A stretch of DNA of 62,605 nucleotides from an uncultured Candidatus Saccharibacteria bacterium (lineage in GTDB: Bacteria; Patescibacteriota; Minisyncoccia; Phycocordibacterales; UBA9973), in the NCBI GenBank assembly GCA_964591445.1, contig CAZQAW010000004.1, forward strand, positions 1 to 62,605, given 5' to 3'. The position numbers and the translations under genes are program-made. The notes beneath the pieces are model-generated. The model was not told where the DNA came from. It ran no database searches and saw nothing but the letters and a program-made list of their open reading frames with translations. Below, one piece after another: positions 11,836 through 59,215 of the stretch; position 1 is the stretch's first letter, and every line of letters starts with the position of its first letter.

Positions 11836-11853
11836 ATCTGCTATACTCAGTCT

Positions 11854-12402
11854 ATGCACAAGCGTTATCTGGCATTTCTCGATACTGAAACGACCGGCCT
11901 TGATCCGGCAATTCATGAAATCATACAAATTGGCGGGGTGATTGTGAAGCAAATCCTAACAGACGGAAAAGTGACTTTTGAAGTTGTCGATGAATTTGAA
12001 TACAAGGTAAAGCCAGAAAATATCGTTCAAGCCGACAAAGTAGCGCTTCGAGTGAATGGCTATGACGAAGCCGATTGGGTGTTTGCGTATACGCTCACAG
12101 AAGCGATGACGATGCTTGCTGAGAAAACGAAGGACTGCATTATGGTCGCGCACAATGCGCACTTTGATTTGAACTTTTTTGACGCGGCATGGAAGAAAAC
12201 CGGAATTGCAAACCCAATGCATTATTATGCGATCGATACGATTTCTGTCGCGTTTACAAAGTTGCAAGGGAAGAGCGAAATAGAAAAGCTTTCGCTTCGG
12301 GCACTTTCTGAATATTTTGGCTTAGAAAACAAAAATGCGCACACTGCGCTCTCTGACGCACGAACAACTTTTGAGCTTTACAAAAAGCTGATGCTATTGT
12401 AG
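11854..12402 (+). CDS. DEDDh 3'-5' exonuclease (DnaQ-like)
   Basis: FLDTETTGL, HNAHFD, HTALSDA motifs. Confidence 0.9.
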   Translation: MHKRYLAFLDTETTGLDPAIHEIIQIGGVIVKQILTDGKVTFEVVDEFEYKVKPENIVQADKVALRVNGYDEADWVFAYTLTEAMTMLAEKTKDCIMVAHNAHFDLNFFDAAWKKTGIANPMHYYAIDTISVAFTKLQGKSEIEKLSLRALSEYFGLENKNAHTALSDARTTFELYKKLMLL

Positions 12403-12533
12403 ATTAATAATTGCAAACATACAAAATATTCCTCAAAAAGCACGACATAATTTTCTGCTGAAAATTTGCTCTGCTCGGCTCGACAGCCTGCGCAAGGCTT
12501 TTCGAGAAATATTTTCTATGTTTGTCTTTCGCT

Positions 12534-13598
12534 ATGAAATTTTTACATAAAAAAACTGTATTTTTGGGTGTTTCTGGCGGAGTAGATTCTTCCGTCTCGG
12601 CAGCTTTGCTTTTGGAGCAAGGTTTTGACGTCGTGGGCGTGTTTATCAAAACATGGCAACCGGAATGGGTGCAGTGCACATGGCGCGATGAAAAGCGCGA
12701 CGCAATGCGTGTTTGCGCGCATCTTGGCATTCCGTTTTTATTTTTTGATTTTGAGCAAGAATACAAAGAAGGCGTTGCAGACTATATGATTGCCGAATAC
12801 AAAGCCGGCCGGACTCCGAACCCAGATGTCATGTGCAACAAAGAAATCAAATTTGGTGCATTTTACAAAAAAGCAAAAGCAATGGGGGCGGACTTTGTTG
12901 CGACTGGCCACTATGCACAAAACAAAAACAATACTCTCGTTGCAGGTCATGACGCAAACAAAGACCAAACGTATTTCTTGTGGACGATTCCGCACAATGT
13001 TTTACAAAACGTACTTTTCCCGATTGGACATTTGGAAAAGAAAGACGTGCGCAAGCTTGCCGAAAAATATAAGCTTCCAACTGCGACAAAAAAAGATAGC
13101 CAAGGTATTTGCTTCATTGGGCCAGTAGACATGAAGGATTTCCTTTTGCATTATATTGAAACAAAAAAGGGCAATGTGCTTGATGAAAAAGGCGCCATCA
13201 TTGGCTCGCACGACGGTGCGTTGCTCTACACGCTTGGTGAGCGACATGGATTTACTATCTCAACACAAACTCCTGACCAAGAGCCATATTTTATTATTGC
13301 AAAAGATATAAAAAACAATACGCTCACCGTTTCAAAAAATAAATTTACCAAAAGCGAAAACACATCACAGATGTTTGATCTCATTTCTTGCAATTGGATA
13401 AGTGCTGTTCCAGAAATTGGGAAAACATACAGCGCTCGCTTTCGTTATAGAGAAGCATTGTCTGAAGTACGCATCCTTGCAATAAAAGACAATACAGCTC
13501 ATATAGAAATAATCAACAAAGAAACCATCCTCACGCCAGGCCAGTCGGCGGTCTTGTACGAAAGTGAAACATGTTTAGGCGGGGGAATTATTGTGTAA
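12534..13598 (+). CDS. mnmA: tRNA 2-thiouridylase MnmA
   Basis: SGGVDSS, PNPDVMCN, ATGHYA, KDQTYFL, DSQGICF. Confidence 0.96.
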   Translation: MKFLHKKTVFLGVSGGVDSSVSAALLLEQGFDVVGVFIKTWQPEWVQCTWRDEKRDAMRVCAHLGIPFLFFDFEQEYKEGVADYMIAEYKAGRTPNPDVMCNKEIKFGAFYKKAKAMGADFVATGHYAQNKNNTLVAGHDANKDQTYFLWTIPHNVLQNVLFPIGHLEKKDVRKLAEKYKLPTATKKDSQGICFIGPVDMKDFLLHYIETKKGNVLDEKGAIIGSHDGALLYTLGERHGFTISTQTPDQEPYFIIAKDIKNNTLTVSKNKFTKSENTSQMFDLISCNWISAVPEIGKTYSARFRYREALSEVRILAIKDNTAHIEIINKETILTPGQSAVLYESETCLGGGIIV

Positions 13599-13645
13599 AG
13601 ATATTTTCCACTTCCAAAAAATACTTTACACGATATACTTAAGGT

Positions 13646-14107
13646 ATGTTCGGTTTTGAATACACTATCTTTTTCAATCTCGCCATGGCTATGTTGCTGG
13701 GTATGATTATTGGTGCAGAGCGTTTGTATGCGCACAAGACTGCAAGCATGCGTACGTACGCGCTCGCTTCGATGGGTTCGGCGCTTTTTGTTTCAATCGC
13801 ACTTTTTGGCGCAGGGCAACTTTCAGATATATATCCGGAGATCAATCCTTTTTTCATGATTGCGCAGATCATTACTGGTGTTGGCTTTTTGGGTGCAGGA
13901 CTCATCATTTATAAAAACGATCAACTTGTCGGGGTCACAAGCGCAACCGGCCTATGGGTTTCTGCTGGCATTGGCATTGCGTGCGGTTTTGGGATGATAA
14001 AGCTCGCGCTTATGGCAACACTTCTTGTACTCTTTATCTTTATCGTGCTCTGGTATATCGAACAAAAGCTCAAGAAGATAATGCCCGAAACGCAAAAAGA
14101 AGACTAA
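13646..14107 (+). CDS. MgtC/SapB family membrane protein
   Basis: IGAER, ASMRT, AQIITGVGFLGAG, TSATGLW. Confidence 0.9.
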   Translation: MFGFEYTIFFNLAMAMLLGMIIGAERLYAHKTASMRTYALASMGSALFVSIALFGAGQLSDIYPEINPFFMIAQIITGVGFLGAGLIIYKNDQLVGVTSATGLWVSAGIGIACGFGMIKLALMATLLVLFIFIVLWYIEQKLKKIMPETQKED

Positions 14108-14162
14108 ATATTCCCGAAATAAAAACCCTGACAAAAACGGGGTTTTTTGCTATACTTCCCAT

Positions 14163-57194: not shown

Positions 57195-57195
57195 A

Positions 57196-57354
57196 TTAAC
57201 ACTCTGGAAGAGACAAAAGATTATCTTTACCTGTCCAATCAGGTTTAGTTCGAATATATGGATTACGTCCATATGGTTCTACAACCTCAACCCATGTAAC
57301 TGCTCCACCAACACTTACAAAAAAGCAAATCGGAAGCCGTCTTTTGTATTTTAA
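57196..57354 (-). pseudogene. C-terminal remnant of a DUF3892-like gene
   Basis: Frame reads FFVSVGGAVTWVEVVEPYGRNPYIRTKPDWTGKDNLLSLPEC-stop; in-frame TAA at 57355-57357 upstream and no start codon. Confidence 0.6.
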
Positions 57355-57383
57355 TTATAATCCTAACATTTTCTACTTACAAC

Positions 57384-57412
57384 TTTACACATGTTAAGCA
57401 ATATGATATATT
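57384..57412 (+). promoter_or_regulatory. Leaderless promoter of HTH-hsdM
   Basis: TTTACA-17-TATATT with extended TG, 6 nt before the ATG. Confidence 0.65.
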
Positions 57413-57418
57413 ACCTAC

Positions 57419-59215
57419 ATGTCTATCAATAAAAGCAAATTCCTTACCCCCACCCAACTTGCAAAACTCATGGGTATTTCTCGTGTAGCGATACATCAAA
57501 AGATAAAGAAAGGTGAGATACCGGCTGAGAATATTGGAGACCCTTCAAAGCCAACCTATTTAATCCCCAAGGAATCTCTTTCTAAGGAGCTACGAGATAG
57601 GATTCAAATGGAACAAAAGAAAGCAACCGAAAGTGTTGTCGGTAAAGATGCTCACCATCACGACCTCAACTTCGAAAAGGAGCTCTGGGCTGCGGCTGAT
57701 AAGCTTCGCGGAAACATTGATGTTTCTGAATACAAGAACATTGTTCTAGGTCTCCTCTTTTTGAAATACATATCTGATGCTTTTTATAAACGCCGTGACG
57801 AACTTGATGCACTCACCCGTGATCCCAAGAACGAGGATTTTTATGTGAAAAATGATAAGGCACGTGAACAAATTCTTGAGACAAAAGATTTTTATAAAAG
57901 TGCAGGTGTGTTTTATGTTCCTGAAAAATCACGTTGGGAATTTTTGCAAACAAAAACAATGCAGTCTGATATTGGTCAGGTTCTTGATAAGGCCATGGAT
58001 TATATCGAGGAAGACAACAGAGCTGAGCTTGAAGGTGTACTTCCAAAGATTTATACACGAACAACACTTGATCACTCTGTTATTGGTGAACTTGTAAATA
58101 TCTTCTCTCGTATCTCATTTGATCATAACTTCGATCGAGAAAAAGATATTCTTGGGCGTATCTATGAATATTTCCTTGGTCAATTTGCTTCATCTGAAGG
58201 AAAACGTGGAGGCGAGTTTTTTACACCTAGATCAATCGTTAAGCTACTTGTTGAAATTCTTGAACCTTACGAAAACGCGCGTGTATTAGACCCCGCTTGT
58301 GGTAGTGGAGGAATGTTTGTTGCTATGGGTGAATATCTCCGTAATCACGGGCAAGATTCATCAAAACTTGCAATCAATGGACAAGAGAGCAATCAAACAA
58401 CACTTCGTCTTGCAAAGATGAACCTTGCCATTCGAGGACTTTCTGGAAAAATTGAACTTGGAAACACTTACTATCAAGACAAGTTCCCGCACTTGCAGGC
58501 AGATTTTGTCATTGCCAACCCTCCTTTCAATGGGGAATGGGAGCCGTCAAAACTTTCTGATAACGACCCACGTATTACGCTCGGTACTCCACCAAGTGGT
58601 AATGCAAACTTTATGTGGGTTCAGCATTTTGCTCATCACCTTACACCGAACGGTTTAGCGGGATTTGTTATGCCAAACGGAGCACTTGCTGTATCAGGCA
58701 AAGAAGGAGAACTTCGCAAGAAGCTTATTGAAGAAGATCTTGTTGAAGTAATTATTTCTTGCCCCTCAAAGCTTTTCTATAATGTGTCGCTTCCTGTATC
58801 ACTATGGTTCTTGGCAAAAAATAAAAAAGGTGACCGTTTCCGAAAACGATCAGGCGAAACACTATTCATTGATGCTCGAGATACATTCGAGCAGATTTCT
58901 CGTAAACAAGTTGTGTTCAACCCAGAGCATATTGAGAAAATCTCAAACACAGTACGTGCGTGGCGTGGAAAAAAAGATGCAGGAAAATACGAAGATGTAT
59001 CTGGGTTCTGTAAATCTGCAACTCTTGAGGAAATTAAAAAGAATGGATACGTACTTACTCCTGGGCGATATGTTGGTCTTGCAGACGTAGAAGATGACGG
59101 CGTTTCTTTTGAAGAAAAGATGCAAAAACTTTCAAGTGAACTTCGAGATGCATTTGAAAAGGGTCGAGACTTGGAAAAAGAGATTGAGAAGAATCTTAAA
59201 GAACTTGGATTTTAA
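57419..59215 (+). CDS. hsdM: Type I R-M methyltransferase subunit with N-terminal excisionase-like HTH
   Basis: LTPTQLAKLMGISRVAIH HTH; LWAAADKLRG, GEFFTP, DPACGSGGM, ANPPFN. Confidence 0.95.
   Translation: MSINKSKFLTPTQLAKLMGISRVAIHQKIKKGEIPAENIGDPSKPTYLIPKESLSKELRDRIQMEQKKATESVVGKDAHHHDLNFEKELWAAADKLRGNIDVSEYKNIVLGLLFLKYISDAFYKRRDELDALTRDPKNEDFYVKNDKAREQILETKDFYKSAGVFYVPEKSRWEFLQTKTMQSDIGQVLDKAMDYIEEDNRAELEGVLPKIYTRTTLDHSVIGELVNIFSRISFDHNFDREKDILGRIYEYFLGQFASSEGKRGGEFFTPRSIVKLLVEILEPYENARVLDPACGSGGMFVAMGEYLRNHGQDSSKLAINGQESNQTTLRLAKMNLAIRGLSGKIELGNTYYQDKFPHLQADFVIANPPFNGEWEPSKLSDNDPRITLGTPPSGNANFMWVQHFAHHLTPNGLAGFVMPNGALAVSGKEGELRKKLIEEDLVEVIISCPSKLFYNVSLPVSLWFLAKNKKGDRFRKRSGETLFIDARDTFEQISRKQVVFNPEHIEKISNTVRAWRGKKDAGKYEDVSGFCKSATLEEIKKNGYVLTPGRYVGLADVEDDGVSFEEKMQKLSSELRDAFEKGRDLEKEIEKNLKELGF

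Follow-up and report, generated by a model that had tools for sequence, protein, structure and literature searches.

Actinobacteria, Deinococcus, and archaea are the familiar settings of leaderless initiation, and a large share of the messages of haloarchaea and mammalian mitochondria start at or near the AUG without Shine-Dalgarno (SD) pairing. On the promoter side, the extended −10 promoters of Escherichia coli and Gram-positive bacteria carry TGnTATAAT, can dispense with a −35 box, and start transcription about 7 nt after the hexamer. The −10 hexamer occupies positions −12 to −7, so that with 6 nt between hexamer and start codon, +1 coincides with the first base of the ATG. Here, we analyze contig CAZQAW010000004.1 (assembly GCA_964591445.1; 62,605 nt, hereafter the window), in which a TAnnnT box, usually preceded by TGn, ends exactly 6 nt ahead of the start codon in a series of genes. 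These boxes are likely extended −10 promoters placed to yield 5′-AUG leaderless mRNAs, in a lineage that would do without SD pairing.

In bacteria, the signature of leaderless transcription is a Pribnow box (TANNNT) 6–8 nt before the start of the first genes of operons, which defines group C of GeneMarkS-2 (PMC6028130). Group C is exemplified by Actinobacteria and Deinococcus-Thermus, such as M. tuberculosis and D. deserti, with ~25–50% of transcription units being leaderless; the archaeal leaderless type forms group D (PMC6028130). For Parcubacteria, what has been described is the rRNA: only 48% of their 16S rRNAs have a recognizable anti-SD motif (CCTCCT), and the lineages concerned were suggested to form no SD helices (Tsurumaki et al. 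2022, PMC9297842). The window resembles group C in its localized box peak at 6 nt, in a predicted 5′ start codon that is AUG or GUG, and in the share of genes concerned, ~43% of those not tightly coupled to an upstream gene. It departs from group C in that leadered and internal genes there use SD, whereas an SD core precedes 3% of genes here. Further differences are that the box is mostly TGn-extended and that the genome, instead of being GC-rich, is tiny and AT-rich; the leaderless transcripts themselves are predicted.

A −10 box at a fixed distance from the start codon

The first-pass annotation had listed 13 genes with a TAnnnT hexamer, mostly preceded by TGn, ending 6 nt before the start. 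Re-extraction by coordinate, with 50 upstream bases inspected, bore this out: the spacing is exactly 6 nt at 13 of 13 starts, and TGn precedes the hexamer at 11, the exceptions being 13646 (CGA) and 38180 (GCC). Twelve of the start codons are ATG and one is GTG (38180, minus strand). Pfam boundaries agree with the chosen starts, as profiles set in 2–12 residues from them; in the 38267 product the match to L21 sets in at residue 3, and in the 41730 product position 7 of the Trp/Tyr-tRNA synthetase profile aligns with residue 5.

The arrangement was compared with 100 dinucleotide-preserving shuffles of the window. The window has 12 copies of the extended form, TGNTANNNT-N6-ATG, whereas the shuffles average 2.12±1.36 and never reach 12; of these 12 copies, 11 open genes. 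Bare TANNNT-N6-ATG shows no window-wide enrichment (40 vs 32.3 in shuffles), so what carries the signal is the extended −10 and the fact that it coincides with gene starts. TANNNT stands at gap 6 before 16 of 61 gene-start ATGs and before 24 of the 2066 remaining ATGs (odds ratio 30, p ~1e-15), and the extended form precedes 11 of 61 against 1 of 2066 (Fisher p ~1e-15 to 1e-17 across both forms). A histogram of the distance from 135 TGNTANNNT sites to an ORF-opening ATG, which the first-pass annotation had named as its own test against shuffled controls, has one sharp peak: 12 sites at gap 6, four at gap 10, and 0–3 at all other gaps. A bump at TGNTANNNT-N19-ATG comprises nine sites of unrelated sequence and was dismissed as chance.

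Our 72 heuristic gene models include 18 that are tightly coupled to the preceding gene, with a stop-to-start distance of 0–5 nt (often TAA-Y-ATG) or an overlap. Among the remaining 54, a box stands at gap 6 in 14 and at gap 7–10 in nine, together ~43%.

Several properties identify the box as promoter-like. Across 98 non-redundant gap-6 sites collected from relatives, the free positions of the hexamer favor T (66/98), A (56/98), and A (73/98), which completes TATAAT. A TTGACA-like hexamer is enriched at these sites at a spacing of 16–17 nt (9–10 sites vs 0–5 at other tested spacings); a −35 box lies 16–17 nt upstream in ~20% of cases. A generic −35/−10 scan independently called the promoters of 14163, 38180(−), 38267, 47481, 51257, and 57419. 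Position −1 at gap-6 sites is a pyrimidine in 73 of 97 cases and G in only three, and the codon that follows (n = 104) is ATG in 97, GTG in six, and TTG in one, a distribution that fits the known 5′-AUG preference of leaderless translation. The strongest two terminator predictions of the 38–58 kb segment end 8–16 nt ahead of the 55653 and 41730 boxes (folds of −17.8 and −15.3 kcal/mol, z-scores −5.1 and −3.9); because these terminators directly precede their boxes, both genes would be separate transcription units. TGnTAnnnT with good −35 boxes also occurs 19–48 nt upstream of 24496, 25199, 27510, and 50843(−), and upstream of the dnaK operon. This variable distance to leadered genes argues against the link to the start codon that a ribosome-binding site would show. 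Where genes of relatives lie ≤12 nt apart, the 3′ end of the upstream gene almost never contains the motif. By these properties, the upstream signal behaves as a sigma-70-type promoter and not as a ribosome-binding site.

An SD core (GGAG/GAGG/AGGA(/AAGG)) lies upstream of two of the 72 gene models, with 6.9 expected at random positions. By a uniform measure, its frequency is 3% in the window, 4–5% in close relatives, 14% in distant Patescibacteria, and 71% for annotated E. coli genes; G is depleted across the whole 20 nt upstream of window starts. The first-pass annotation was right to see no SD motif at its listed starts, but the absence is not specific to them: the core precedes only 3% of all window genes, and the genome shows no sign of SD use anywhere. 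SD-free gene starts of this kind are what one would predict from the published finding that about half of Parcubacteria have lost the anti-SD.

On the preferred reading, a sigma-70-type extended −10 element (TGnTAnnnT; TGnTATAAT as the consensus), whose −35 box is weak or missing, would direct RNA polymerase to start at the seventh base after the hexamer. That base is the A of the ATG, a purine that usually follows a pyrimidine. The mRNAs would then begin with 5′-AUG and have no 5′ untranslated region, and the ribosome would bind the 5′ start codon directly. Genes would be opened by three routes: leaderless or near-leaderless transcripts (gap 6–10 nt) for ~40% of the genes outside tight coupling; stop–start coupling for operon-internal genes, which overlap the preceding gene or follow it by 0–5 nt, often as TAA-Y-ATG; and A-rich, G-poor leaders of ~20–50 nt for a minority of mostly low-GC genes.

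The base before the start codon deserves separate mention. It is T in 48 of the 72 gene models (45 of 66 with a second gene caller) and in 53–59% of genes in the 160 related loci, whereas E. coli has T there in 12%; purines are rare at this position. The bias is common to leaderless, coupled, and leadered genes, so a transcription-start rule does not explain all of it.

Recurrence in relatives and competing explanations

The translation factor BipA (6499–8298) is 72–78% identical to proteins of metagenome-assembled genomes (MAGs) labeled Paceibacterota, Nomurabacteria, Minisyncoccia, or Yonathbacteria, and full-length matches to the 440-aa GltX query reach 74% identity in MAGs with the same labels. 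By these protein matches, the window is assigned to Patescibacteria (Candidate Phyla Radiation, CPR), class Paceibacteria/Parcubacteria, and is Nomurabacteria-like. Its GC content is ~42%, and its DNA occurs in wastewater and activated-sludge metagenome DNA runs.

Relatives were sampled as ~0.56 Mb of DNA around bipA and ~1.2 Mb around gltX from other genomes. Each of the four Patescibacteria groups has its spacer maximum at 6 nt, with 27, 29, 32, and 13 sites; the group farthest from the window includes Woesebacteria, Harrisonbacteria, Portnoybacteria, and Cerribacteria; control loci from Bacteroidota and Ignavibacteria gave zero gap-6 sites. After clustering of the downstream proteins, the ~1.4 Mb of DNA from relatives has 53 protein families at gap 6, followed by 30, 23, 21, and 15 at gaps 7, 8, 9, and 10 over a background of 3–9, which argues that the peak is not a single conserved promoter counted repeatedly. 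A second mode at gap 10 in the raw counts disappeared when families were collapsed, leaving this monotonic tail. Close gltX orthologs (58–87% identity) keep TTGTCA-17-TGnTAnnnT-6/7-ATG even as the spacer sequence and the first codons vary; in more distant orthologs, the promoter lies 20–25 nt upstream or the gene is operon-internal. A related strain, represented by metatranscriptome and metagenome contigs (runs X5, X7, and X9), lacks pepF (14163–15935). There, 14156 is joined to 15936 with CATCGG between, and the TGCTATACT box is followed by CATCGG+T and then the alaS ATG, a 7-nt gap. In the window, pepF sits between the TGCTATACT box and alaS.

The leaderless reading first proposed for the gap-6 boxes thus gains support from the 6-nt peak in the window, its recurrence in 53 families of relatives, and the sigma-70 properties of the motif, all of which are compatible with a transcript starting on the ATG. 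Against it stand several observations that we gather here. Four of the 13 starts (17737, 28414, 38180, and 41730) have an in-frame TTG 2–14 codons upstream and were therefore partly chosen by the motif; for 17737, a start at the TTG at 17695 would put the box within coding sequence. Where boxes lie in co-directional gaps of only 17–21 nt, the genes may also be expressed from polycistronic read-through because the gaps are so short. The window contains no rRNA and the 160 related loci contain no 16S motif, so the 16S 3′ tail of this lineage was not recovered. Four metatranscriptome runs carry a 95–99% identical strain, as assembled contigs only. Contig depth there is flat at ~20 over ribosomal-protein and other genes, as in DNA, and one contig crosses the divergent intergenic region 38181–38266. 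We regard the flat depth as DNA carry-over or assembler flattening, hence uninformative on start sites, and use it neither for nor against the reading. The sole RNA hint against a strict start on the ATG is a contig from one of these runs whose first base is 11829, placing its end 25 nt ahead of the 11854 ATG; this end could reflect read-through, DNA carry-over, or an upstream start. A separate scan of the genome collection, aimed at 16S 3′ ends in which GGATNA is followed by a base other than C, returned 100 loci, with no close relative among them. The altered loci belong to Gracilibacteria, Peregrinibacteria, Flavobacteriales, haemoplasmas, Rickettsiales, and others, and are mostly single-base variants such as TCTCC.

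Three other explanations were weighed. Chance occurrence in AT-rich upstream DNA, compounded by the selection of fitting start codons, could draw on the unenriched bare TANNNT-N6-ATG (40 vs 32) and on the four starts preferred over an upstream TTG. It is excluded by the statistics and the independent genomes and retains a negligible probability: the extended form is sixfold above shuffles with 11 of 12 matches at gene starts (Fisher p as above), nine of the 13 starts are the earliest start codon of their ORF, and the peak recurs in independent genomes and 53 families and is absent from the control phyla. A second possibility is that TAnnnT is no promoter at all and acts in the mRNA as a non-SD ribosome-binding or translation-enhancing element, perhaps by pairing with a changed 3′ tail of the 16S rRNA. 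In its favor, SD usage is not seen in the lineage and the anti-SD is gone from some Parcubacteria, several boxes stand in short co-directional gaps, and promoters and ribosome-binding sites can share a distance of 6–8 nt (GeneMarkS-2, PMC6028130). However, the conserved and degenerate positions follow sigma-70 (TGn, T−12, A−11, and T−7, with the free positions completing TATAAT) rather than a contiguous complement of rRNA; the −35 box at 16–17 nt is kept in gltX orthologs; and the motif varies in distance before leadered genes and stands directly after terminators. It is also found before none of the window's tightly coupled genes, the internal genes at which such a signal would be expected. 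We consider this explanation very unlikely.

Closer to the preferred reading is the view that the promoters are real but that their transcripts are not strictly leaderless, either because initiation occurs a few bases off or because a downstream start codon is used, in which case short leaders would result. The tail at 7–10 nt (30, 23, 21, and 15 families; mreB, dnaB, frr, and mraY in the window) speaks for it, as does a second ATG two codons into gene 14163. Yet the mode falls sharply at 6, the canonical −10 to +1 distance, ATG is strongly preferred exactly at gap 6 with a pyrimidine at −1, and Pfam profiles start 2–12 residues from the proposed starts. Leaders of 1–4 nt would in any case be too short for a ribosome-binding site and would act as leaderless. 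We judge this variant improbable, and take extended −10 promoters that place +1 on the start codon as the likely explanation for the gap-6 boxes.

Individual sites and other upstream layouts

The gap-6 sites precede genes of varied function; sites and genes listed here and below lie on the plus strand unless the minus strand is given. The first (11839–11856) opens a DEDDh/RNase T exonuclease gene (11854–12402) with TGCTATACT-N6-ATG in an intergenic gap of 18 nt, and an MgtC-family gene (13646–14107; box 13634–13648) has TATACT-N6-ATG without TGn. The M3 oligopeptidase F gene pepF carries TGCTATACT-N6-ATG at 14148–14165 with a −35 CTGACA 17 nt upstream; a hairpin and T-run occupy 14121–14147, ahead of this box. 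The same TGCTATACT-N6-ATG (17722–17739) precedes a hypothetical gene (17737–18903). On the minus strand, a PaaX-like regulator gene (27884–28414; box 28412–28429) has TGATAGTAT-N6-ATG, and a plus-strand histidine kinase gene (34910–36565; box 34895–34912) has TGTTACTAT-N6-ATG in an intergenic gap of 18 nt. The weakest of the 13 sites is 38178–38215(−), where TTGAGT-17-TATACT-N6-GTG precedes a hypothetical gene (37743–38180) upstream of cysS, with a GTG start and no TGn.

The ribosomal protein L21 gene rplU (38267–38584) is preceded at 38232–38269 by TTGACT-17-(TGC)TACTAT-N6-ATG and followed by a terminator (38588–38615). An antisense ORF (38177–38542, minus strand, 121 codons) had displaced rplU in a longest-ORF gene call; rplU itself matches L21 in Pfam with an E value of 7e-36, and the antisense ORF is almost certainly spurious. 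A class I Trp/Tyr-tRNA synthetase gene (41730–42677) has TGGTACAAT-N6-ATG at 41715–41732, directly after the terminator at 41671–41699. A DedA/VTT membrane protein gene (44480–45145) has TGGTATAAT-N6-ATG at 44465–44482 in a 21-nt intergenic gap, and gltX (51257–52579) has TGCTAGAAT-N6-ATG at 51242–51259, a layout kept in the orthologous promoters of relatives. A hypothetical gene (55653–56171) follows the terminator at 55605–55630 directly, with TGGTAAAAT-N6-ATG at 55638–55655. The last site (57384–57421), TTTACA-17-(TGA)TATATT-N6-ATG, belongs to the type I methyltransferase gene hsdM (57419–59215). Terminator and promoter are fused at 14121–14156, 41671–41723, and 55605–55646, where the T-run either enters the next extended −10 or ends 8–16 nt before its TG, leaving nearly no untranscribed spacer between units.

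Slightly wider gaps had been noted for six further genes, and five of these stand: aspS (43124–44458; TGGTAGAAT-N7-ATG at 43108–43126), frr (2655–3191; TGGTACACT-N8-ATG at 2638–2657), an mraY-like glycosyltransferase family 4 gene (47481–48542; TTGGTA-17-TATACT-N8-ATG at 47444–47483), the AdoMet decarboxylase gene speD (32302–32691; TGCTACAAT-N9-ATG at 32284–32304), and mreB (210–1223; TGCTATACT-N10-ATG at 191–212). The sixth, grpE, could not be confirmed. The ORF so labeled (28487–28828; 113 codons, 27% GC), which precedes dnaK, has no Pfam match at E 1e-4. It shows TAAAAT at gap 6 and yet has an A-rich leader and, at a distance of 49 nt, a perfect upstream TTGACA-18-TATAAT promoter; for this reason we left it out of the leaderless set, and it would belong to a leadered operon. 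Boxes of the same kind precede an M23 peptidase gene (52597–53871; TAGTAT-N7-ATG at 52584–52599, intergenic gap 17 nt), dnaB (39232–40611, minus strand; TGCTACAAT-N10-ATG at 40609–40630), and a hypothetical membrane protein gene with a probable start at 9517 (TATACT-N10-ATG at 9501–9519). The dnaJ gene (31397–32269) has TGGTATAAT-N13-ATG at 31375–31399, a very short leader. A divergent pair shares 33875–33901: a SET-domain gene (33482–33877, minus strand) has TAGTAT-N6-ATG, and a methyltransferase gene (33899–34891, plus strand) has TGCTATACT-N10-ATG. Their start codons lie 21 bp apart, and the −10 boxes on opposite strands overlap on the near-palindrome TATACTA.

Other genes start differently. 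Stop–start coupling, typical of operon-internal genes, is exemplified by pepF–alaS (alaS, 15937–17694), with TAA-T-ATG at 15933–15939 on the plus strand. The low-GC genes at 24496, 25199, 27510, 40747, 50843(−), and 54952 have 52–68% A in the last 25 nt upstream, and four of the six, 24496, 25199, 27510, and 50843(−), are those with full promoters 19–48 nt upstream. On the plus strand, TTGACT-16-(TGC)TATTAT and a 48-nt A-rich leader precede 24496 (24420–24498), TTGACA-17-(TGA)TAATAT and a 27-nt A-rich leader precede 25199 (25143–25201), and TTGACA-16-(TGA)TACTAT and a 25-nt A-rich leader precede 27510 (27457–27512). The first-pass annotation had proposed two initiation modes, leaderless for many housekeeping genes and A-rich leaders for most AT-rich inserts. 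In outline this holds, in that low-GC genes are A-rich upstream, but stop–start coupling has to be added as a third mode, and the AT-rich end of the window also has two genes of leaderless type, hsdM (57419) and the gene at 55653.

The bipA/typA gene is leadered (6397–6498): a promoter, TGTTATTCT, is followed by a stable hairpin at 6417–6459 (−24.3 kcal/mol, z −3.0), a U-run, and ~38 nt to the ATG. In many relatives (loci L002–L039, ~2940–3000), a GC hairpin and T-run lie 5–35 nt before the bipA ATG, several with a TGTTATTAT box upstream. The leader looks like a conserved, attenuator-like element, and a comparison with Rfam gave no convincing match (best E 0.098). Rfam did match a DUF3800-V RNA at 59941–60055(−) with 63 bits (gathering score 37.4); a mechanically called ORF at 59843–60229(+) is probably not a gene because this match overlaps it. 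The AT-rich, hsdM-linked segment in which it lies (GC 0.33–0.37) is likely a defense or mobile island. Among the related loci, nine contigs labeled "uncultured Gammaproteobacteria/Pseudomonadales" in third-party annotation (TPA) assemblies (L130, L134, L137, L140, L141, L151, L152, L157, and L158) have 43% GC; SD usage is 10% in them and 69% of their genes have T at −1, and they look like mislabeled Patescibacteria.

Comparison with other initiation systems and implications

Beyond group C, the window shares traits with several known systems. The anti-SD loss in Parcubacteria (PMC9297842) concerns the same broad lineage and likewise implies SD-free starts; that paper treats the rRNA side only, and the word "leaderless" occurs zero times in its text. 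Bacteroidota, assigned to GeneMarkS-2 group B, also have SD-less starts and A-rich, G-poor upstream regions, as do the leadered low-GC genes here. They differ in that the control loci lack the 6-nt promoter box and in that their signal resides in leadered mRNAs ahead of all genes. Group B is defined by the same non-SD motif before all genes, operon-internal ones included, and the box described here is absent before tightly coupled genes. The extended −10 of E. coli and Gram-positive bacteria has the same TGnTATAAT, but there normally stands ahead of an SD-carrying 5′ untranslated region. Haloarchaea and mitochondria offer an analogy rather than a homology, as their promoters (the archaeal box lies at about −26) and polymerases are different. 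Termination–reinitiation coupling resembles what the layout of the internal genes suggests (0–5 nt or overlap, often TAA-Y-ATG) and would concern genes other than the leaderless ones.

A full-text literature search, outside of which most subscription journals fell, found no paper linking leaderless initiation or mRNA-side SD usage to Patescibacteria/CPR. The mechanism itself is ordinary; the new elements are the lineage in which it occurs, an SD absence that is complete, and an apparently broad distribution among Patescibacteria. For practical purposes, gene callers that expect SD motifs may misplace starts in these MAGs, for which a box at −12 to −7 is a strong marker of the start codon. The promoter signature likewise provides a cheap delimiter of transcription units in MAGs, and TGnTATAAT-N6-ATG cassettes could serve as expression tools for the few cultivated CPR bacteria.

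A broader proposal, to which we would give even chances, is that an entire branch within Patescibacteria (Paceibacteria and, going by the loci sampled here, Woesebacteria, Harrisonbacteria, Portnoybacteria, and Cerribacteria as well) gave up SD pairing completely. The start of transcription would then set the start of translation and the promoter would act as the "ribosome-binding site", with reinitiation serving internal genes and A-rich leaders the rest. If true, free-standing bacteria with reduced ribosomes would initiate translation in a manner like that of mitochondria or archaea, as the mRNA-side counterpart of anti-SD loss. The data would supply the missing half of that story, namely how genes start once the anti-SD is gone, and they suggest that this arrangement is widespread in a very large, mostly uncultured group.

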